Below, piece after piece: positions 6,898-57,190 of a DNA stretch of 64,000 nucleotides; position 1 is the stretch's first letter; each line of letters starts with the position of its first letter. A program made the position numbers and the translations under genes. Source of the stretch: Escherichia coli. GTDB lineage: Bacteria > Pseudomonadota > Gammaproteobacteria > Enterobacterales > Enterobacteriaceae. The stretch lies in NCBI RefSeq assembly GCF_001677475.2, contig NZ_CP015229.1. One strand, 5' to 3'. The notes under the pieces are model-generated. The model searched no databases, was not told the DNA's origin, and saw only the letters and a list, made by a program, of their open reading frames with translations.

Positions 6898-7629
6898 ATG
6901 GCGCTTTACACAATTGGTGAAGTGGCGTTGCTTTGTGATATTAACCCTGTCACGTTACGCGCGTGGCAGAGGCGTTACGGATTGCTGAAACCGCAACGGA
7001 CAGACGGCGGTCATCGGCTGTTCAACGATGCCGATATTGACCGTATCCGCGAGATCAAACGCTGGATCGACAACGGCGTGCAGGTCAGCAAAGTTAAAAT
7101 GCTGCTCAGTAATGAAAATGTTGATGTGCAGAACGGCTGGCGCGATCAGCAAGAAACATTACTGACCTACCTGCAAAGCGGCAATCTGCATAGCCTGCGA
7201 ACGTGGATCAAAGAGCGCGGTCAGGATTACCCCGCCCAGACACTCACCACACATCTGTTTATTCCTCTGCGCCGACGGCTTCAGTGCCAACAACCGACTC
7301 TCCAGGCGCTGCTGGCGATCCTCGACGGCGTACTGATCAACTACATCGCCATTTGTCTGGCTTCGGCACGTAAAAAACAGGGTAAAGATGCGCTGGTGGT
7401 TGGCTGGAATATTCAGGATACCACCCGTCTGTGGCTGGAGGGCTGGATTGCCAGTCAACAAGGATGGCGCATTGATGTCCTCGCCCACTCGCTCAATCAA
7501 CTACGCCCTGAACTATTCGAAGGCCGTACATTGCTGGTGTGGTGCGGTGAAAATCGAACCTCCGCCCAACAGCAGCAACTCACCAGTTGGCAAGAACAAG
7601 GCCATGATATTTTCCCACTCGGCATTTAA
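6898..7629 (+). CDS. mlrA: MerR-family transcriptional regulator MlrA (YehV)
   Basis: 243-aa product with N-terminal MerR HTH (MALYTIGEVALLCDINPVTLRAWQRRYGLL). Confidence 0.85.
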   Translation: MALYTIGEVALLCDINPVTLRAWQRRYGLLKPQRTDGGHRLFNDADIDRIREIKRWIDNGVQVSKVKMLLSNENVDVQNGWRDQQETLLTYLQSGNLHSLRTWIKERGQDYPAQTLTTHLFIPLRRRLQCQQPTLQALLAILDGVLINYIAICLASARKKQGKDALVVGWNIQDTTRLWLEGWIASQQGWRIDVLAHSLNQLRPELFEGRTLLVWCGENRTSAQQQQLTSWQEQGHDIFPLGI

Positions 7630-7796: not shown

Positions 7797-8508
7797 GCGC
7801 CTGCACCAGCCTTTCAAACAGGCGGTCTGCGATGATCGCCGCCAGTGCCACCAGTAACGCCCCCTGGATCACATACGCGGTATTAAATCCGCTAAGCCCG
7901 ATGATGATGGGCGTACCCAGCGTGCTGGCCCCTACCGTTGAGGCGATCGTCGCCGTACCAATGTTGATAATCACCGAAGTTCGCACGCCCGCCAGAATCA
8001 CCGGAGCCGCCAGCGGTAGCTCGACCTTACGCAGTCGCTGACCACGACTCATTCCCATACCTTTCGCAACTTCTGTCACGCTGGCATCAATCGCTCCCAG
8101 CCCGGCAAGTGTCGCCTGCAGGACGGGCAGCACACCATAAAGGATCAAGGCGATAATCGCTGGTTGCAGACCAAAGCCGATCACCGGAACAGCAATCGCC
8201 AGCACTGCGACAGGCGGAAAAGTCTGCCCAACGGCGGCAATAGTTTCCACCAGTGGGCGAAATTCCGCGCCCCACGGGCGAGTGACTGCAATTCCGGCAC
8301 CAGTGCCAATGATCACCGCAAACAAACTCGAAATTCCCACCAGCCAGAAATGAGCCAGTGCCAGAGCCGCAAAACTTTCTTGCTGATAAACGGGTCGTGG
8401 CAGTTGTGGGAACAAGGCAGCAAACAGCGGCTGGCTGTAAGGCAGCCAGAAAATCAGTGCCACAAACAAAGCAATGAGCCAGAACAGCGGATCGCGCAAC
8501 ATCTTCAT
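7777..8508 (-). CDS. yehW: Osmoprotectant ABC transporter permease YehW
   Basis: 243-aa polytopic permease, first gene after osmF-yehY-yehX in operon order. Confidence 0.85.
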
Positions 8509-44220: not shown

Positions 44221-45078
44221 ATGAAATACATTGGAGCGCACGTTAGTGCTGCTGGCGGTCTGGCAAATGCCGCAATTCGCGCCGCCGAAATCGACGCAAC
44301 CGCGTTTGCCTTGTTCACCAAAAACCAACGTCAGTGGCGTGCCGCACCGCTCACGACGCAAACCATCGATGAATTCAAAGCCGCCTGTGAAAAATATCAC
44401 TACACATCGGCGCAAATTCTTCCCCACGACAGTTATCTGATTAACCTCGGACATCCGGTCACTGAAGCTCTGGAAAAATCGCGCGATGCCTTTATAGATG
44501 AAATGCAGCGTTGCGAACAGCTGGGGCTTTCTTTGCTCAACTTCCACCCTGGCAGCCATCTGATGCAGATTTCAGAAGAGGATTGCCTTGCGCGTATTGC
44601 CGAATCCATCAACATTGCGCTGGATAAAACTCAAGGTGTAACAGCGGTGATTGAAAACACCGCCGGTCAGGGCAGCAATTTAGGGTTTAAATTCGAACAT
44701 CTCGCGGCGATTATCGATGGCGTGGAAGATAAATCCCGCGTCGGCGTCTGCATTGATACCTGCCATGCTTTCGCTGCCGGGTATGATTTGCGTACTCCAG
44801 CCGAATGCGAGAAAACGTTCGCTGATTTTGCCCGTATTGTTGGCTTTAAGTATCTGCGTGGGATGCACCTTAACGATGCGAAAAGCACCTTTGGCAGCCG
44901 CGTTGACCGCCATCATAGCCTCGGTGAAGGCAATATCGGTCATGATGCGTTCCGCTGGATCATGCAAGACGACCGTTTCGACGGCATTCCGCTGATCCTT
45001 GAAACCATCAACCCGGATATCTGGGCAGAAGAGATCGCCTGGCTGAAAGCGCAACAAACTGAAAAAGCGGTAGCCTGA
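44221..45078 (+). CDS. nfo: Endonuclease IV (AP endonuclease)
   Basis: 285 aa, Nfo family TIM barrel. Confidence 0.9.
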
Positions 45079-45080
45079 AG

Positions 45081-46169
45081 ATGAATAACCGGGAAAAGGA
45101 GATCCTTGCAATTTTACGGCGTAACCCGCTGATTCAGCAGAACGAAATTGCGGACATGCTGCAAATCAGTCGTTCGCGCGTTGCGGCGCATATTATGGAT
45201 TTAATGCGTAAAGGGCGGATTAAAGGCAAAGGTTACATTCTCACTGAGCAGGAATACTGCGTAGTGGTGGGGACAATCAATATGGATATTCGCGGGATGG
45301 CGGATATCCGTTACCCGCAAGCGGCTTCTCATCCCGGAACAATTCATTGCTCGGCGGGCGGCGTTGGACGCAATATCGCCCACAATCTGGCGCTGTTAGG
45401 CCGCGACGTCCATTTGCTTTCAGTGATTGGCGATGACTTTTATGGCGAAATGCTCCTGGAAGAAACGCGCCGTGCCGGCGTGAATGTCTCCGGCTGCGTT
45501 CGTTTACATGGCCGAAGCACATCGACGTATCTGGCAATTGCCAATCGAGACGATGAAACCGTGCTGGCGATTAACGATACCCATCTGCTGGAACAGTTAT
45601 CGCCGCAATTATTGAACGGGTCGCGCGATTTACTTCGTCATGCGGGCGTGGTACTGGCTGATTGCAACCTGACAGCCGAGGCGCTGGAGTGGGTCTTTAC
45701 CCTCGCTGATGAAATCCCGGTGTTTGTCGATACCGTTTCAGAATTCAAAGCGGGCAAAATCAAACACTGGCTGGCGCATATTCACACCCTGAAACCCACT
45801 TTACCGGAGCTGGAAATTATATGGGGACAGGCGATCACCAGCGATGCTGACCGTAATGCCGCAGTGAATGCATTGCATCAGCAAGGTGTTCAGCATCTGT
45901 TTGTTTATTTGCCCGATGAGTCAGTTTATTGCAGCGAAAAGGATGGAGAACAATTTTTGCTGACCGCGCCAGCGCATACGACAGTAGACAGTTTTGGTGC
46001 TGACGATGGTTTTATGGCGGGCCTGGTATATAGCTTTCTGGAGGGAAACAATTTCCGTGACAGCGCCCGTTTTGCGATGGCCTGCGCGGCAATTTCACGC
46101 GCCAGCGGCAGCTTAAACAACCCTACCCTGTCTGCCGATAACGCGCTTTCATTAGTGCCAATGGTGTAA
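45081..46169 (+). CDS. yeiI: PfkB-family sugar kinase with N-terminal HTH, YeiI
   Basis: 362 aa; N-terminal winged-helix region then ribokinase-like domain; paralogous to psuK. Confidence 0.8.
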   Translation: MNNREKEILAILRRNPLIQQNEIADMLQISRSRVAAHIMDLMRKGRIKGKGYILTEQEYCVVVGTINMDIRGMADIRYPQAASHPGTIHCSAGGVGRNIAHNLALLGRDVHLLSVIGDDFYGEMLLEETRRAGVNVSGCVRLHGRSTSTYLAIANRDDETVLAINDTHLLEQLSPQLLNGSRDLLRHAGVVLADCNLTAEALEWVFTLADEIPVFVDTVSEFKAGKIKHWLAHIHTLKPTLPELEIIWGQAITSDADRNAAVNALHQQGVQHLFVYLPDESVYCSEKDGEQFLLTAPAHTTVDSFGADDGFMAGLVYSFLEGNNFRDSARFAMACAAISRASGSLNNPTLSADNALSLVPMV

Positions 46170-46224: not shown

Positions 46225-47475
46225 CTACGCTAAGCCAATAAAGAATCCTGCAATGGTGGCACTCATCAGGTTAGAAAGTGTCGCCGCCGCCAGCGCGCGT
46301 AAACCAAGCTGGGCGATTTCCGGCGCACGGTGTGGCGCAACCGCAGAAAACGCCCCCACCACCACCCCGATAGAACCAAAGTTAGCGAAACCGCACAACG
46401 CGAAGGAAATAATCGCCACGGTTTTAGCATCCAGAGTGCAAGCCGTTTGCAGATAGGGTGAGAAATTGAGATAAGCGACAAATTCATTTATTGCCAGTTT
46501 CTGTCCAATCAAACTCCCGGCAAGATTCGCATCACTCCAGTCAACACCCATCACCCACGCTAGTGGGGCCAGCAGGTAACCTAAAATGGACTCCAGCGAG
46601 GCATGTTCAAAACCAAACCAGCCGCCAACGCCGCCGATAATACCGTTAATTAACGCAATGATAGCGACAAATGCCATCACCACTGTCGCCACACCTGCGG
46701 CGATTTTCAGCCCGGTCATTGCCCCTGTCGCAGCGGCTTCAATAATGCTTTTTGGCGGTGTTTCGGTGAAAGAGAGGTTATTAAAGGAAACCTGCGAAGA
46801 TTCCGTTGCCGGGCTTAACAGGCGGGCAAACAAGATCCCGCCGGGGATCGCCATTAACGATGCCGCCAGCAGATATTCCACAGGCACGCCCAGTGCGGCG
46901 TAACCAATCATTGTCGAACCAGCAATCGAGGCCATCCCGCTACAAATCGCTGTAAATAGTTCATTGCGATTCAGACGATCGATAAAGGGTTTGACGATTG
47001 CCGGAATTTCGTTTTGCCCGAGGAAAATGGTAGTGACCGCGACGAATGACTCAATCTTGCTGATATTTAATGCTTTCTGGAATATACCGCCGAGAATGCG
47101 AATTAAGATCCCCATCACACCGATGTAGTAGAGAATACTCACCAGTGCTGTAACGAAGATAATTGCCGGTAATACCCTGAAGCCAAAGATAAATCCTGCG
47201 CCATCAAATAAGGTGTCCATTTTCGGTCCGACCAGAGAACCGAAGATAAAAGCGCTACCTGCATCGCTGTACGCCATCACTTTATGCACGCCAAAAGCGA
47301 CTTTTTCAGCGACCCAACGCCCTGGAGGTAACCAAAGCATAATCCCGCCAATCACGACCTGTAATACCAGCGCCGCACCGACAGTACGCAGGCTGATCTT
47401 CTTCTTGTTTACTGACAGTAAAAATGCAATTGCCAGCAGTACCACCATTCCCAGAACACTTCTCATGACATCCAT
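46225..47475 (-). CDS. nupX: Nucleoside permease NupX (CNT family)
   Basis: 416-aa concentrative nucleoside transporter; very similar to psuT. Confidence 0.85.
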   Translation of the reverse strand: MDVMRSVLGMVVLLAIAFLLSVNKKKISLRTVGAALVLQVVIGGIMLWLPPGRWVAEKVAFGVHKVMAYSDAGSAFIFGSLVGPKMDTLFDGAGFIFGFRVLPAIIFVTALVSILYYIGVMGILIRILGGIFQKALNISKIESFVAVTTIFLGQNEIPAIVKPFIDRLNRNELFTAICSGMASIAGSTMIGYAALGVPVEYLLAASLMAIPGGILFARLLSPATESSQVSFNNLSFTETPPKSIIEAAATGAMTGLKIAAGVATVVMAFVAIIALINGIIGGVGGWFGFEHASLESILGYLLAPLAWVMGVDWSDANLAGSLIGQKLAINEFVAYLNFSPYLQTACTLDAKTVAIISFALCGFANFGSIGVVVGAFSAVAPHRAPEIAQLGLRALAAATLSNLMSATIAGFFIGLA

Positions 47476-47574
47476 AGTTATTATCTCTTCATGTCATTTT
47501 GGGCGACGGCTTTCTGCCCATCAGAAATAGCCGGGCCTGCATCTTGCGATACTGACCCGGCTTGTTATCAACAC

Positions 47575-48516
47575 TTAATGGGTTTTGATATAGCCGCGCA
47601 CGCACTCTTCGACTAATCCCCAGAACCAGTCGGTATCAATAGTGATGCCGACTTTGGTATTAGCGGGCTTGCCAAGAACGCCCAGCTCGTCGCAGACAGT
47701 ACGCCCATAGCAAGGTCCACTGTTGACGTCCACTTCGACGTACATCTCCTGGGTTTTAATGCCATCAGGGTTAATCAGATAACCGATGCAGGTGGCGTCA
47801 TGCACCGGGCCGCCAGCCAGGCCGTAGTTTTCGAACTGGGTTTTGAGAGTGAAGTTCATGATGTCGCTGAACAGCTCTCCGGCAGGGCCGCCTGCCCTTT
47901 CCATTCGTGCAATCACGTCCGGGGTGCAAACGGTCTGGTTGGTGAGATCGAGGCCCATCATTACTAATGGAACGCCGGAGGTGAACACCACACGTGCCGC
48001 TTCCGGGTCAGCAAAGATGTTGAACTCGGCAGATGGGGTGAAGTTGCCAGTACCGTAAGCGCCGCCCATTAGCACTATTTCACGGATTTTCGGCAGGATT
48101 GCTGGTTGCATACGCATTGCCACCGCGATATTTGAAAGCGGACCAACCGGCACCAAAGTGATATCGCCATCGCTTGCCATCAGGGTATCAATGATATATT
48201 TCACCGCATGAGTGCTTTCTGCCTGGCGGGTCAGCGGCTCGAATACCGGGCCATCCAGTCCGGTTTCACCGTGAATATTATCGGCAACGATTTGTTGCCG
48301 CATAATGGGCTGTGGCATCCCCGCATAAACCGGAACATTAATCTCCAGTTTCTGGCAAACATTCAGACCATTAATTAATGTTTTATCGAGGGTTTGATTA
48401 CCCGCTACAATGGTGATACCTAATAAATCAATCGCCGGATGTTTCGCTGCCATCATCATTGCAATAGCATCATCATGACCCGGATCACAATCCAGAATAA
48501 TTTTTCTCTTTTCCAT
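47575..48516 (-). CDS. rihB: Pyrimidine-specific ribonucleoside hydrolase RihB
   Basis: 313 aa with N-terminal [11 protein letters not shown]-nucleoside hydrolase motif. Confidence 0.9.
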
Positions 48517-48684
48517 TGTTTATTTCCTCTGTTTCCAGTTGCGTTATTTTTTCTACAGCAAAGAAAATTCGACCGGGCCGATGATTGAATCTTAACAACA
48601 GCGTACGTATGCTAAATATGAGAAATCTCATAGCGGATAAACATCGTGAAAGAAATCCACAATAATGATCTTAAGCAGCAATTG

Positions 48685-49344
48685 ATGAGTGAATCCGCGT
48701 TTAAGGATTGCTTTTCAACGGATATTTCAGCCGATACGCGGCTGTTTCATTTTTTAGCGCGTGACTACATTGTGCAGGAAGGGCAACAGCCATCCTGGCT
48801 GTTTTACTTGACGCGAGGCCGCGCCAGGCTTTACGCCACGCTTGCTAATGGTCGCGTGTCGCTGATCGATTTCTTTGCCGCGCCCTGTTTTATTGGCGAG
48901 ATTGAGTTAATCGATAAAGACCATGAACCGCGTGCGGTGCAGGCTATTGAAGAGTGTTGGTGTCTTGCGCTCCCTATGAAACATTACCGCCCGCTGTTAT
49001 TAAACGACACGCTATTTTTACGAAAACTCTGCGTCACCTTAAGTCATAAAAATTACCGTAATATTGTTTCTTTAACTCAGAATCAATCATTTCCGTTAGT
49101 GAATCGCCTGGCAGCTTTTATATTACTCTCGCAGGAGGGTGATCTTTATCACGAAAAACATACCCAGGCAGCAGAGTATTTAGGTGTTACTTATCGTCAC
49201 TTGCTATATGTGATCGCTCAACTCATTCACGACGGTTTATTAATTAAAAGTAAGAAAGGGTATTTAATTAAAAACAGAAAGCAGTTGTCAGGACTGGCGC
49301 TGGAGATGGACCCGGAGAATAAATTCTCCGGGATGATGCAGTAA
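48685..49344 (+). CDS. yeiL: CRP/FNR-family regulator YeiL
   Basis: 219 aa from ATG 48685 (ORF track begins at in-frame GTG 48646); cNMP-binding-like domain plus C-terminal HTH. Confidence 0.7.
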
Positions 49345-49411: not shown

Positions 49412-50662
49412 TCAAGCTAAACCAATAAAGAACCCGGCGATGGTCGCGCTCATCAGGTTGGAAAGCGTTGCTGCTGCCAGCGCCCGTAAACCAAGCTGGG
49501 CGATTTCCGGCGCGCGTTTTGGCGAAATAGCCGAAAATGCGCCAACGACAACACCGATAGAACCAAAGTTAGCAAAACCACAAAGCGCAAAGGAGATAAT
49601 CGCCACGGTTTTCACTTCCAGCGTGCCGCCCGTTTGCAGGTATGGGGAGAAACTCAGGTAAGCGACGAATTCGTTAATCGCCAGTTTCTGCCCAATCAGG
49701 CTACCCGCAAGGTTGGCATCACTCCAGTCCACGCCCATAATCCACGCCAGCGGTGCCAGCACATAGCCAAAAATACTTTCCAGAGAGGCATTGGCGAAAC
49801 CAAACCAGCCGCCAATTCCGCCGATAATGCCGTTGATCAGCGCAATAATTGCGACAAACGCCATTACCACCGTCGCCACACCGGCGGCGATTTTCAACCC
49901 GGTCATCGCACCGCTCGCCGCTGCTTCGATAAAGCTTTTTGGCGGCGTTTCGCTGAACGACAGATTTTCAAATGTCACCTGCGAAGGCTCGGTTGCCGGG
50001 CTAAGAATACGTGCAAACAAAATACCGCCAGGGATCGCCATCAGCGATGCCGCTAACAGGTAGTCAATTGGTACGCCCATTCCGGCATAACCAATCATCA
50101 TCGAACCAGCAATGGACGCCATCCCGCTACAAATTGCGGTAAACAACTCGTTGCGATTCATACGTTCGATAAACGGTTTAACGATCGCAGGGATCTCATT
50201 TTGCCCGAGGAAAATAGTAGTAACCGCAACAAAAGATTCGATTTTGCTGATGTTGAGGGCTTTCTGGAAAATGCTGCCAAGGATGCGAATCAGCAGCCCC
50301 ATCACGCCAATGTAGTACAGCAGACTGATGAGCGCAGTAACGAAAATAATCGCCGGAAGTACGCGAAAGGCGAAGATAAAACCCGCACCGTCAAACAGGA
50401 CATCCATTTTCGGCCCAACCAGCGAACCAAAAATGAAGGCGCTACCGGCATCACTGTAAGACATCACTTTATGAACGCCTAATGCCGCCTGTTCTACTGC
50501 CCATTTTCCCGGTGGGAAGTAGAGCATGATGCCACCAATAGCGATTTGCAGCAGCAGTGCGGCTCCAACCGTGCGCAAACTGATGCCCTTTTTATTCACT
50601 GACAACAGAAATGCTATTGCCAGTAACACCACCATCCCCACAACACTTCTCATTATATCCAT
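49412..50662 (-). CDS. psuT: Putative pseudouridine/nucleoside transporter PsuT (YeiM), CNT family
   Basis: 416 aa, paralog of nupX, last gene of psuKGT. Confidence 0.85.
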   Translation of the reverse strand: MDIMRSVVGMVVLLAIAFLLSVNKKGISLRTVGAALLLQIAIGGIMLYFPPGKWAVEQAALGVHKVMSYSDAGSAFIFGSLVGPKMDVLFDGAGFIFAFRVLPAIIFVTALISLLYYIGVMGLLIRILGSIFQKALNISKIESFVAVTTIFLGQNEIPAIVKPFIERMNRNELFTAICSGMASIAGSMMIGYAGMGVPIDYLLAASLMAIPGGILFARILSPATEPSQVTFENLSFSETPPKSFIEAAASGAMTGLKIAAGVATVVMAFVAIIALINGIIGGIGGWFGFANASLESIFGYVLAPLAWIMGVDWSDANLAGSLIGQKLAINEFVAYLSFSPYLQTGGTLEVKTVAIISFALCGFANFGSIGVVVGAFSAISPKRAPEIAQLGLRALAAATLSNLMSATIAGFFIGLA

Positions 50663-50755: not shown

Positions 50756-51694
50756 TTAACCCGCGAGACGCTGGTATTCTTTGGCAATTTCACTCGCCAG
50801 AATGGCGTTGTTGAACACCAGTTGGATGTTGGATTTCAGGCTGTCACCGCCGGTCAGTTCAGCAACGCGCGCCAGCAGGAATGGCGTACTTTCTTTACCA
50901 ATAACACCCTGCGCTTCAGCTTCAGCTACCGCCTGATCGATCGCCGCATTGATAGTGTGTTCCGGCATAGCAAACTGTTCCGGGATCGGGTTCGCTACCA
51001 CGAGGCCACCGTTCAGCCCGCTTTGCCATTTCACCGCCATTGCACGGGCAATTTCGCTGGCGCTGTCGAGACGAATGCTGACGTCAAACGGGCTGGTGCG
51101 GCAGAAAAACGCAGGCAGCGCTTTTGTCTGATAGCCAATTAACGGCACACCAAAGGTTTCTAAATACTCAGTGGTTAATCCTAAATCGAGAATAGATTTC
51201 GCCCCGGCACAAACAACGGTGACATTAGTATTTGCCAGTTCTTGCAAATCGGCAGAAATATCGAAGGTATGTTCCGCCCCGCGATGCACACCACCAATTC
51301 CCCCGGTGGCAAATACTTTAATTCCGGCAAGCGCCGCAATAATCATCGTTGAAGCCACAGTGGTTGCGCCATTTTTTCCGGCGGCAACAACAAAAGGTAA
51401 ATCGCGACGACTAACTTTGGTCACGTTATGCCCTTCACGACCCAGTAATTCAATTTCTTCTTTGCTTAAACCCACTTTCATCACGCCGCCAATAATGGCG
51501 ATAGTGGCAGGTACTGCGCCCTGTTTACGAATAGTTTCTTCTACTTCAATTGCGGTCTTGGCATTTTGTGGGAACGGCATCCCGTGAGAAATAATGGTTG
51601 ATTCCAGCGCCACAACCGGTTTTTTGTTTTTTAAAGCGTCCTGCACTTCCGGGGAAATTTGTAATAATTCAGGGGAAATTTTTAATTCAGACAT
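50756..51694 (-). CDS. psuG: Pseudouridine-5'-phosphate glycosidase PsuG (YeiN)
   Basis: 312 aa, indigoidine synthase A-like family. Confidence 0.9.
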   Translation of the reverse strand: MSELKISPELLQISPEVQDALKNKKPVVALESTIISHGMPFPQNAKTAIEVEETIRKQGAVPATIAIIGGVMKVGLSKEEIELLGREGHNVTKVSRRDLPFVVAAGKNGATTVASTMIIAALAGIKVFATGGIGGVHRGAEHTFDISADLQELANTNVTVVCAGAKSILDLGLTTEYLETFGVPLIGYQTKALPAFFCRTSPFDVSIRLDSASEIARAMAVKWQSGLNGGLVVANPIPEQFAMPEHTINAAIDQAVAEAEAQGVIGKESTPFLLARVAELTGGDSLKSNIQLVFNNAILASEIAKEYQRLAG

Positions 51695-52623
51695 TCTGCG
51701 TTCTCCACTAACGATATAACGTTGGCAATCGATAAATCGGGGTTATTGGTGTATTCACAGGAGAGCGCCATTGACGAACATCCCTGTGCGAAACGAACAG
51801 ATTCGGCAAACGGCATTCCGTCTACCCAACACGAAGCAAGTCCCGCCATCATGGCATCGCCCGCTCCGGTAACATTAATAACATTGGTTTTGATCGGGGC
51901 AGACCAGCCACTTTCACCGCTGATATCACTGTAATAAACGCCATCGCCGCCCATGCTCAATACCAGTCGGTTCAGGCCATGTTGATGGAACCAGGCAGCA
52001 ACTTTTGCCACATCTTCACGCCCTGACAGCGCAATCCCACTCAGGGTTTCCGCTTCAAGGCGGTTTGGCTTCAGAGTGTGGATCTGATTTAGACGGTCGC
52101 GCACTTTGACACATTTCCACGCTGAAACCGGATCGACAAATACGGGTACGTTGGCGGCATTATCCAGAATCCATGCCAGTGCCTCTTCACTGATATTACA
52201 GTCCGCGACAATGACCTTTGCCCTCTGAATAAATTCACGGTGCTGTGCGAGATATTCAGCTGTAATAGCGTTGCTAATATTCATGTCATTTATAGCAACC
52301 AGCATTTCACCGGTATTATCGAGTAATGATAAATAACTCGACGTATTTTCTCCCGGCACAATCAGGCATTTATCGACATAAACGCCAGATTGATTGGTTT
52401 GCGTTAGCAGCGATTGACCATAAAAATCACTGCCTACGGCGCTCAGTAGCCAGGCTTTGTTACCCAGCAACGCCAGGTTTTGTGCAATATTGCGCCCTAC
52501 TCCACCAGGCGTAAATTTTATTTTACCTGGATTTGAATCCGCATAATTTAATGATTCATGTGAATATCCGGCGACATCAATATTCGCCGAACCTATAATT
52601 ACGACATAATCCTTTTCGCGCAT
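51682..52623 (-). CDS. psuK: Pseudouridine kinase PsuK (YeiC), PfkB family
   Basis: 313 aa with ribokinase-type GAGD motif; stop overlaps psuG start by 13 nt. Confidence 0.85.
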   Translation of the reverse strand: MREKDYVVIIGSANIDVAGYSHESLNYADSNPGKIKFTPGGVGRNIAQNLALLGNKAWLLSAVGSDFYGQSLLTQTNQSGVYVDKCLIVPGENTSSYLSLLDNTGEMLVAINDMNISNAITAEYLAQHREFIQRAKVIVADCNISEEALAWILDNAANVPVFVDPVSAWKCVKVRDRLNQIHTLKPNRLEAETLSGIALSGREDVAKVAAWFHQHGLNRLVLSMGGDGVYYSDISGESGWSAPIKTNVINVTGAGDAMMAGLASCWVDGMPFAESVRFAQGCSSMALSCEYTNNPDLSIANVISLVENAECLN

Positions 52624-52861
52624 AGCACGTCCTCTGGTAAAAAATTACCAACCCTGTCAATCCACAAGAATATAGATACTGCAAAGACGGTTTAAACATG
52701 TGTTCATATTTAAACATGTGCTCATAGTATGCATGTTTTACGTAAAGTAAATTACCGCCAGAGAGGCAAAATGGGCAGATTTGAGCAGGCTCACAAAATG
52801 CGATTAAATGCCTGAATTACAAAAGCGAGGAATTTGTGACGGGATGCACAGAACATGAACA

Positions 52862-52892
52862 CTAAAAAAGGGCAGAAAATAATCTGCCCTTG
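52862..52892 (-). terminator. Intrinsic terminator on minus strand about 155 nt downstream of fruA
   Basis: Minus strand reads agggcaga-ttatttt-ctgccct followed by TTTTTT. Confidence 0.5.
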
Positions 52893-53046
52893 AGGAAATA
52901 ACCTTAGTGTTTGATGAACGTTTCAGGTTTCTACTGAAAGATAAAACCATTTAAATTCATAAAATTACATTCACAAACCGGTCATTCTCTTTGCGCTCAT
53001 CCAATGATACAGGGCAGGAAATTTCTGCCCTGTAACACACCTTTTA

Positions 53047-56858: not shown

Positions 56859-57190
56859 TTCTATGAGAAAAAAAGCGCCAACCTGGCTTAGGGTTAAAGA
56901 CAAGATCGCGCTGAAACGTTTCAAGAAAGCATAATACTTCTGTTTCAGCACGCAAGGAAAGCCGTAAAGTTATGAGCAAAAGTTTGATGTGCTGCACAAT
57001 TTTTTGTCATTTTTCCTAATTGCTGATGGGAAAATCCGTTATCAGCAATTTCATTTCAGCAGCGTCAGCAGCCAATCAGCAACAGTGAAATGGCATTTTG
57101 ATTATTCGTGGCGCTTTTGATTTCGCTGCCTGTTTATTTTCTGACAAGCAGCGTAAACTCCGCGTCTTCCTCTTCCAGTGATCGACCAGC

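Follow-up and report, generated by a model that had tools for sequence, protein, structure and literature searches.

Among the described systems, promoters of the lac, gal and deo type, in which a local repressor is combined with CRP, are among the closest to the promoter in front of the pseudouridine operon psuK-psuG-psuT of Escherichia coli. As in these, the psuK promoter has palindromic candidate operators over the core promoter and a putative CRP site at class I distance, the gene of the proposed regulator, yeiI, is a neighbour of the operon, and the inducer is presumed to be the substrate. In contrast to the distant auxiliary operators used for looping in the lac, gal and deo type, the psuK operators are adjacent (18 bp). 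YeiI does not belong to the LacI, GalR or DeoR family.

Regulators derived from enzymes, also called trigger enzymes, are a second group for comparison. They include BirA, NadR, the ROK repressors NagC and Mlc, PurR of Bacillus subtilis (a winged helix-turn-helix, wHTH, joined to a PRT pseudoenzyme) and the archaeal RbkR. Like them, YeiI has a DNA-binding domain fused to an enzyme-like domain of the pathway that it would control. The enzyme motifs are degenerate in the YeiI clade, as in PurR, NagC and Mlc, while the related proteins of the Yersinia type have intact motifs, as BirA, NadR and RbkR do. The sensor domain of YeiI differs from those of the other trigger enzymes in having the PfkB (ribokinase) fold, and we know of no characterised transcription factor based on PfkB. 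The two-box operators of the MarR type, such as PI/PII of MexR, resemble the proposed arrangement in that a winged-helix dimer binds each pseudo-palindrome and that two neighbouring boxes lie over the promoter. The best Pfam match of YeiI is, however, HTH_24, and its single short wHTH is without the dimerisation helices of MarR, so that the PfkB domain would have to mediate dimerisation. The AACA-NN-TGTT shape of the boxes is also shared with the PrfA box and the Gram-positive LexA 'Cheo box' (GAAC-N4-GTTC), the core of which equals GAACATATGTTC of E. albertii. This is a likeness in sequence only; neither protein is present in E. coli, and YeiL, the CRP/FNR-family protein encoded nearby, does not co-occur with the boxes.

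In the 64,000-nucleotide stretch of E. coli DNA analysed here (the window), psuK (51682-52623, minus strand) encodes a pseudouridine kinase consisting of the PfkB domain only. It is the first gene of the regulated operon and is followed by psuG (50756-51694, minus strand) as the second and psuT (49412-50662, minus strand) as the third. The fruA gene is located upstream on the same strand as psuK; to the left are yeiL, rihB, nupX and yeiI. A convergent yeiI comes directly after psuT in E. albertii, Citrobacter, Buttiauxella, Enterobacter, Salmonella and Affinibrenneria, and all of these retain the boxes described below, with yeiL being absent. In E. coli nothing but an insertion of nupX-rihB-yeiL separates yeiI from psuT. 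NupX is 88% identical to PsuT, and the nupX-rihB-yeiL segment (46225-49344) looks like an Escherichia-specific insertion or duplication.

The original prediction described two direct copies of a 16-bp sequence upstream of psuK. Both taaacatgtgttcata at 52693-52708 and taaacatgtgctcata at 52711-52726 were confirmed by reading the window sequence, and their placement upstream of the psuK start was borne out, the elements being 70-117 bp from the ATG at 52623 (minus strand). The unit had been drawn too small: according to the repeat search it is 18 bp long and contiguous head-to-tail, TTTAAACATGTG[T/C]TCATA at 52691-52726, with 17/18 positions identical between the copies. TRF gave a period of 18, 2.0 copies, 94% and a score of 65. 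This tandem is more than chance: by our own arithmetic about 5e-5 tandems of 18-bp period are expected per window, and among periods of 12-30 it is the sole full-period tandem with at most one mismatch in the 64 kb. The repeat region is identical in K-12 MG1655, and the psuK promoter region was found in 4225 of 5426 complete E. coli genomes. About 22% of the genomes (1201/5426) had no match to this region, and the psu cassette may thus be variably present within E. coli. The swine E. coli isolate NZ_CP015912.1 (1140682-1141050) carries three units of the 18-bp repeat, which is a natural three-operator allele and indicates that slippage is still active.

A third element of the original prediction, catgtttta at 52732-52740, is present as described, but it does not hold up as an inverted partial copy. 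It lies in the spacer between the -35 and -10 hexamers, is conserved as AAACAyGC and could at most be a half-site, AAACAyG. None of the 18-mers covering it scored above 0 with the operator matrix presented below.

Our survey covered 20 psu loci, from Escherichia to Shewanella. A scan with PsuK gave 11 orthologous loci, from other Escherichia species, E. albertii, Citrobacter, Buttiauxella and a Raoultella MAG. When 240 bp upstream of psuK were aligned for 12 Enterobacteriaceae promoters, the conserved blocks were, in the sense of psuK, TGTGy-N6-TCwCA, TTGTGA-N6-TCAwATCT, ATTTACTTT, AAAC..GC and TAyTAT, together with two further blocks rArCAyrTGyTy between which no genus had an indel. The leader and the 8 nt between the box cores were variable. 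The distal operator box O1 (52709-52726, minus strand; sense-strand TATGAGCACATGTTTAAA) has its core GAGCAC/ATGTTT, the slash marking the centre, at 52723-52712. It is conserved in the 12 aligned promoters and spans about -9 to +9, overlapping the -10 hexamer and the predicted start site. The proximal box O2 (52691-52708, minus strand; sense-strand TATGAACACATGTTTAAA; core GAACAC/ATGTTT at 52705-52694) covers about +10 to +27. The centres of O1 and O2 are 18 bp apart, a spacing which is invariant in the alignment. Within each unit the palindrome rAACA-NN-TGTTy is conserved, in both boxes, in the 12 aligned promoters and in 8 further loci.

Both boxes, the 18-bp spacing and the position at the core promoter are common to Escherichia, Citrobacter, Buttiauxella, Enterobacter, Salmonella and Affinibrenneria, the second box being degenerate in Salmonella, Enterobacter and Buttiauxella. 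The two blocks differ from each other in genomes outside the E. coli clade; those of E. albertii, TATGAACATGTGTTTAAA and CCGAACATATGTTCTAAT, are not copies of one another. A perfect palindrome, GAACATATGTTC, is found in E. albertii, with CAAACAgaTGTTTG in Enterobacter and AAACATATGTTT in Salmonella. As each block is palindromic and the blocks are non-identical outside the E. coli clade, the functional reading is that of two boxes of dyad symmetry whose centres are 18 bp apart. The phylogenetic footprinting that the original prediction had proposed for the psuK upstream regions therefore upheld a multi-site operator, since the paired boxes, their spacing and their core-promoter position are kept across genera, but it replaced the direct repeat by the palindrome as the functional unit. 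The 17/18 direct-repeat identity is confined to the clade of E. coli, E. whittamii and Escherichia sp. E1V33, and the near-perfect repeat is a recent Escherichia event in which a copy of box 1 replaced box 2, probably by slippage. We consider it highly probable that the psuK promoter carries a conserved dual operator.

For the 12-bp core by itself the window has 8 matches with up to one mismatch, and 8.8 are expected, so that it is not rare. The significance of the boxes rests on their flanks, pairing, position and conservation, and the bare 12-mer is insufficient. Other operator readings were compared by eye only. Those placed on the junction between the box centres (the GlpR-type TGTTCG...CGAACA and a DeoR-type one) were dropped because no part is less conserved than the 8 nt separating the cores, and TorR, KdgR, PrfA box and Cheo box readings were rejected.

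The same motif was found in more distant taxa. The Yersinia upstream region contains AGACAcaTGTTT and AAACAagTGTCC, 18 bp apart, and the pair of Serratia is nearly identical to it (AAACTcaTGTTT and AAACAagTGTCC, 18 bp apart). Pasteurella has AAACAaaAGTTG and AAACAggTGTTG, also 18 bp apart, Aliivibrio has a motif pair with 19-bp spacing, and Shewanella has three sites, one of them a perfect GCAAACAtaTGTTTGC, with a spacing of 19 bp. An extra distal AACCAAACAnnTGTTTGGTT is present in Yersinia, Serratia and Xenorhabdus. In Aliivibrio and Pasteurella a promoter-like element precedes the boxes, which directly adjoin the start codon, and where a gene for an HTH-PfkB fusion heads the operon, the motif is directly upstream of it.

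A symmetric operator matrix was built from 14 sites of six genera, none of them Escherichia (Yersinia, Serratia, Xenorhabdus, Pasteurella, Aliivibrio and Shewanella). When this matrix was applied to the E. coli window, the proximal box ranked 1 and the distal box 6 of 63,983 positions. At that matrix score O1 and O2 were the only pair in the window spaced 18-19 bp, and any such pair appeared in 1 of 200 shuffles. The matrix was also run over eight more loci, each taken as a whole (4-17 kb): those of Salmonella, Enterobacter, Affinibrenneria, E. albertii, Buttiauxella, two Citrobacter and the Raoultella MAG. In each, the highest-scoring match was in the psuK upstream region, in most of them with a recognisable partner box 18 bp away. 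Some other matches were also obtained. The one at 50810-50827 is inside psuG, at its 3' end, and recurs in Salmonella and Affinibrenneria. It was not accepted as an operator, as the sequence codes for the conserved peptide IQLVFN and synonymous changes move the score between -1.9 and 12.6. The match at 7246 was rejected as intragenic. A single site, TATGAGCAAAAGTTTGAT at 56971-56988 (score 11.5), which resembles the distal psuK box, is located about 150 bp upstream of fruB. The matrix scan found no sites comparable to the boxes upstream of the stand-alone yeiI of E. coli, Salmonella and Affinibrenneria.

The boxes overlap what appears to be a conserved sigma-70 promoter, P1, in which ATTTAC-T is followed after 16 bp by TACTAT. 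The -35 hexamer TTTACT (52746-52751, minus strand) is part of the ATTTAC that is invariant in the alignment, and the putative -10 hexamer TACTAT (52724-52729, minus strand), 16 bp downstream, is conserved as TAyTAT in most of the 12 promoters. P1 was missed by the promoter consensus scan because it scores only 8/12. The transcription start of psuKGT is predicted, from the promoter geometry only, at 52717-52719 (minus strand; 2259390-2259392 of NC_000913.3), 5-7 nt past the -10, so that the 5' UTR would be about 94 nt long. The Cappable-seq supplement has no start-site entry near the psuK promoter. The boxes begin inside the predicted -10 and extend from about -9 to +27, which would be the position of a repressor. 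A second promoter-like match, TTTAAA-16-TATATT (52696-52669), was found in Escherichia only. It has 9/12 in the consensus scan and its -35 is inside the proximal box; if it were used, the boxes would centre at about -37.5 and -55.5. In another E. coli strain, SCPM-O-B-8794 (locus L003, 2880-3000), a 12-bp deletion directly downstream of the proximal box leaves the boxes intact and removes the spacer of the TTTAAA/TATATT match.

Two CRP-like sites, 55 bp apart, lie further upstream. The proximal one, TGTGAGCCTGCTCAAA in the sense orientation (52780-52795), is centred at -70.5 and is a 9/10 match to TGTGA-N6-TCACA, its TTGTGA and TCAwATCT being invariant across genera. The distal one, TGTGCATCCCGTCACA (52835-52850, sense), is centred at -125.5 and is partly conserved as TGTGy..TCwCA. 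In the window 7 matches to TGTGA-N6-TCACA within one mismatch were found and 1.9 were expected; two of the 7 are those at psuK. Relative to the predicted start, the putative CRP site at -70.5 is close to -71.5, one of the positions (-61.5, -71.5 and -82.5) suited to class I activation. The psuK upstream region is not among the sites of the CRP Footprint-seq preprint. Tandem CRP-like sites (52780-52850) ahead of a nucleoside-catabolic operon recall promoters of the CytR type, and in E. coli there are GCATT motifs between the two sites, which are not conserved in other genera.

Some further elements were seen in the intergenic region, where a search with Rfam gave nothing near threshold. Directly upstream of the psuK Shine-Dalgarno sequence there is a short conserved hairpin or palindrome (52630-52649, minus strand; GGTAAttttTTACC in E. 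coli), which is GGCAA..TTGCC in Citrobacter and GGCAT..ATGCC in Salmonella, with apparent compensatory changes. RNAalifold gave no consensus structure for the psuK leader, as indels in the loop length misalign the short stem. The segment from the fruA stop to the psuK promoter holds a pair of similar terminator-like hairpins (GGGCAG..CTGCCC), one at 52868-52891 and the other at 53005-53037 (both minus strand). Their distance is about 140 bp, with about 110 nt of unassigned sequence between them and no Rfam match. A Cra/FruR-like palindrome, TGAACGTTTCA at 52913-52926 downstream of fruA, is altered to TGAACGTTTGA in K-12 and is probably not functional for that reason.

An adaptive mutation of E. 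coli falls within P1. An A>C change in the psuK/fruA intergenic region, at 2257444 of NC_000913.2, arose in 5/7 mice (PMC9509342), the same change recurs in old mice (PMC7518454), and an A>C 'psuKp' allele was found in 3/4 long-term stationary-phase populations (PMC7858067). According to the authors, the SNP is located in the psuK promoter and changes expression and growth. In our coordinates the A>C change (plus strand) maps to 52749 of the window, which is the third base of the -35 and turns TTTACT into TTGACT. This position was obtained from the offset of +1978 between genome versions, taken from srlR L25S (2827142 in version 2 and 2829120 in version 3), and from the collinearity of the window with K-12. 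For the offset we assumed that there is no indel between the two K-12 versions from 2.26 to 2.83 Mb. The SNP would be a 'promoter-up' change, and it provides independent support for the P1 assignment. In the experiments concerned the adaptive mutations were always in the -35 and never in yeiI or in the boxes (PMC9509342, PMC7518454, PMC7858067), while loss-of-function alleles of other local repressors (frlR, srlR, dgoR and glpR) were common in the same experiments. The absence of mutations in yeiI or the boxes is compatible with conditions in which the operon was already induced, yet it is unexpected for a simple repressor.

YeiI, encoded at 45081-46169 (plus strand), is the proposed regulator. 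It consists of an HTH_24 domain (residues 1-48) and a PfkB kinase-like domain (residues 58-348). The N-terminal winged helix matches Pfam HTH_24 with E = 1.2e-10, with weak matches also to MarR and MarR_2, and it is nearly invariant across the family, the HTH columns being at least 90% conserved in alignment A2. In the same alignment S30, N143 and K170 (EcPsuK numbering) are invariant, YeiI included; these are the pseudouridine-binding residues (PMC9061257). Two kinase motifs, the anion-hole or catalytic-site GAGD and the glycine-rich MGxxG, are retained in PsuK and in the Yersinia-type fusions. In the YeiI clade they are replaced by GADD/GADE (GADD in E. coli YeiI) and LPDES. Judged from these active-kinase motifs, which it lacks, the YeiI clade has presumably lost kinase activity. 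The identity of the YeiI clade to PsuK is 38-43%, and that of the Yersinia-type fusions to E. coli PsuK is 53-60% in Yersinia, Serratia, Pasteurella and Xenorhabdus and 41-45% in Aliivibrio and Shewanella. A psuK mutant is reported to be unable to use pseudouridine despite the presence of yeiI (PMC12506659, citing Preumont 2008), which fits duplication followed by subfunctionalisation.

The HTH-PfkB proteins of Yersinia, Serratia, Xenorhabdus, Pasteurella, Aliivibrio and Shewanella are 41-51% identical to YeiI. In these genera the HTH-PfkB gene is the first of an operon with psuG and with or without psuT, and operons headed in this way have no separate psuK. Altogether, the HTH-PfkB gene was adjacent to or in one operon with psu genes in 17 non-E. 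coli loci from 13 genera. The linkage of yeiI to psu genes held in every locus examined, and the cassette of yeiI and psuT-psuG-psuK was kept together across different genomic neighbourhoods. The Yersinia and Serratia proteins are annotated with 372 aa, with the ATG inside the first operator box (ACACATGTTTAAA; 8001-8030 in both loci, L014 and L015). Translation probably begins at the second ATG instead, 9 codons further on, giving 363 aa as in the other genera. The stop of nfo and the start of yeiI are 2 nt apart in E. coli and Enterobacter (45078-45081 in the window), and because of this short gap yeiI is probably co-transcribed with this endonuclease gene. A published RpoD genomic-SELEX list has an entry between nfo and yeiI (PMC3946193). 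The NCBIfam name of the YeiI family is only 'sugar kinase' (June 2026), and no PDB entries with the HTH-PfkB architecture were found. Our literature searches on a pseudouridine regulator and on YeiI acting as a transcription factor gave only lists of 'hypothetical TF', and the searchable literature gave no description of a psuK operator or of the function of YeiI.

We propose, with a probability of roughly 0.65, that the two repeats form a dual operator on a CRP-dependent sigma-70 promoter and that YeiI is the most likely protein to bind them as a repressor. Both the assignment of the regulator and its repressor role are deduced from motif, linkage and position. A dimeric winged-helix YeiI would occupy both boxes, from about -9 to +27. 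As the boxes are over the core promoter, the bound protein would block the binding or the escape of RNA polymerase and hence repress psuK-psuG-psuT. Binding of pseudouridine or its 5'-phosphate to the PfkB-like domain would then release YeiI, after which CRP at -70.5 could activate transcription. The 18-bp spacing sets two dimers on different faces of the helix, which we have counted against the YeiI model. The same holds for the degenerate second box of some genera, for the lack of a box in front of the stand-alone yeiI, and for the Escherichia-only promoter-like match with its -35 in the proximal box.

It is possible, though unlikely, that the boxes are the real operator of another, unlinked factor of global or nucleoside-related function, and that YeiI is a kinase paralogue with an unrelated DNA target. 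Such a factor would agree with the fact that yeiI and operator mutations were never selected in the evolution experiments, with the lack of a box upstream of yeiI and with the CytR-like arrangement of the tandem CRP-like sites 55 bp apart. It is harder to reconcile with the motif tracking the HTH-PfkB gene across Enterobacterales, Pasteurellales, Vibrionales and Alteromonadales, with operons in which HTH-PfkB is the first cistron directly behind the boxes, and with the yeiI/psu cassette moving as a unit. We also know of no E. coli operator consensus which the box motif resembles, and this too speaks against an unlinked factor. Less probable still is that the protein on the boxes is an activator of the TTTAAA-16-TATATT promoter, turning psuK on with pseudouridine. 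That promoter scores 9/12 and P1, before the SNP, 8/12, and sites at about -37.5 and -55.5 would suit an activator. However, the TTTAAA/TATATT match is not conserved outside Escherichia, and its spacer has been lost by the 12-bp deletion in L003 with the boxes retained, whereas P1 is conserved in all genera and it is the -35 of P1 that the adaptive SNP improves. The boxes of Aliivibrio and Pasteurella, which likewise follow a promoter-like element and abut the start codon, also argue against activation.

The regulator named as a speculative candidate in the original prediction was YeiL, and this part of it did not survive the comparison of loci. The yeiL gene is adjacent in E. coli, and PrfA, a member of the same CRP/FNR family, recognises TTAACA-NN-TGTTAA, a site of similar shape. 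A role of YeiL in nucleoside catabolism was proposed by Anjum et al. 2000, as reported by a citing source. Nevertheless, YeiL was rejected as the box binder on synteny, since yeiL is absent from orthologous loci that retain the boxes. In Hafnia (L023) and Enterococcus (L024, 58% identical) YeiL homologues are encoded divergently to operons of the rihB-like IU_nuc_hydro kind, with no psuKG near them, and this suggests that YeiL regulates rihB-nupX. YeiL is furthermore annotated as an activator, whereas the boxes are at -9 to +27. From the sequence comparisons YeiI thus appears the better candidate, and we give YeiL very little weight. Equally improbable is that the repeat is a neutral slippage duplication or a set of direct-repeat boxes of the TorR type. 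The copy number does vary, up to the three units of the swine isolate, the direct-repeat identity in E. coli is recent, and GTGTTCATAT matches the tor box, CTGTTCATAT, at 9/10. Against both versions, the pair of boxes keeps its position and spacing in genera whose two boxes are not direct repeats of one another, and the conserved pattern is palindromic. For TorR, in addition, the 18-bp period differs from the 10-11 bp phasing of OmpR-family direct repeats.

As to the origin of the system, we lean, by a narrow margin over even odds, towards YeiI being a pseudouridine-sensing repressor made from a dead kinase, which arose when an ancestral bifunctional HTH-kinase was duplicated, with the repeats as its dual operator and with recurrent selection on the pathway in the gut. 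The ancestral HTH-pseudouridine kinase would have phosphorylated pseudouridine and repressed its own operon, a form that may still exist in Yersinia, Serratia, Pasteurella, Vibrionaceae and Shewanella. After a duplication in Enterobacteriaceae, one copy would have lost the HTH and become the enzyme PsuK, and the other would have lost the kinase motifs and become the regulator YeiI. The pathway may be under recurrent positive selection in the mammalian gut. If this is true, YeiI, which is among the predicted transcription factors of E. coli K-12 that are still uncharacterised, would gain a function, a DNA motif and a target. The enzyme-derived regulators would be joined by a sensor of the PfkB fold, and the family would provide a clear case of subfunctionalisation after duplication. 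For the engineering of pseudouridine production, the locus would offer a defined promoter and operator together with a candidate pseudouridine-responsive switch.
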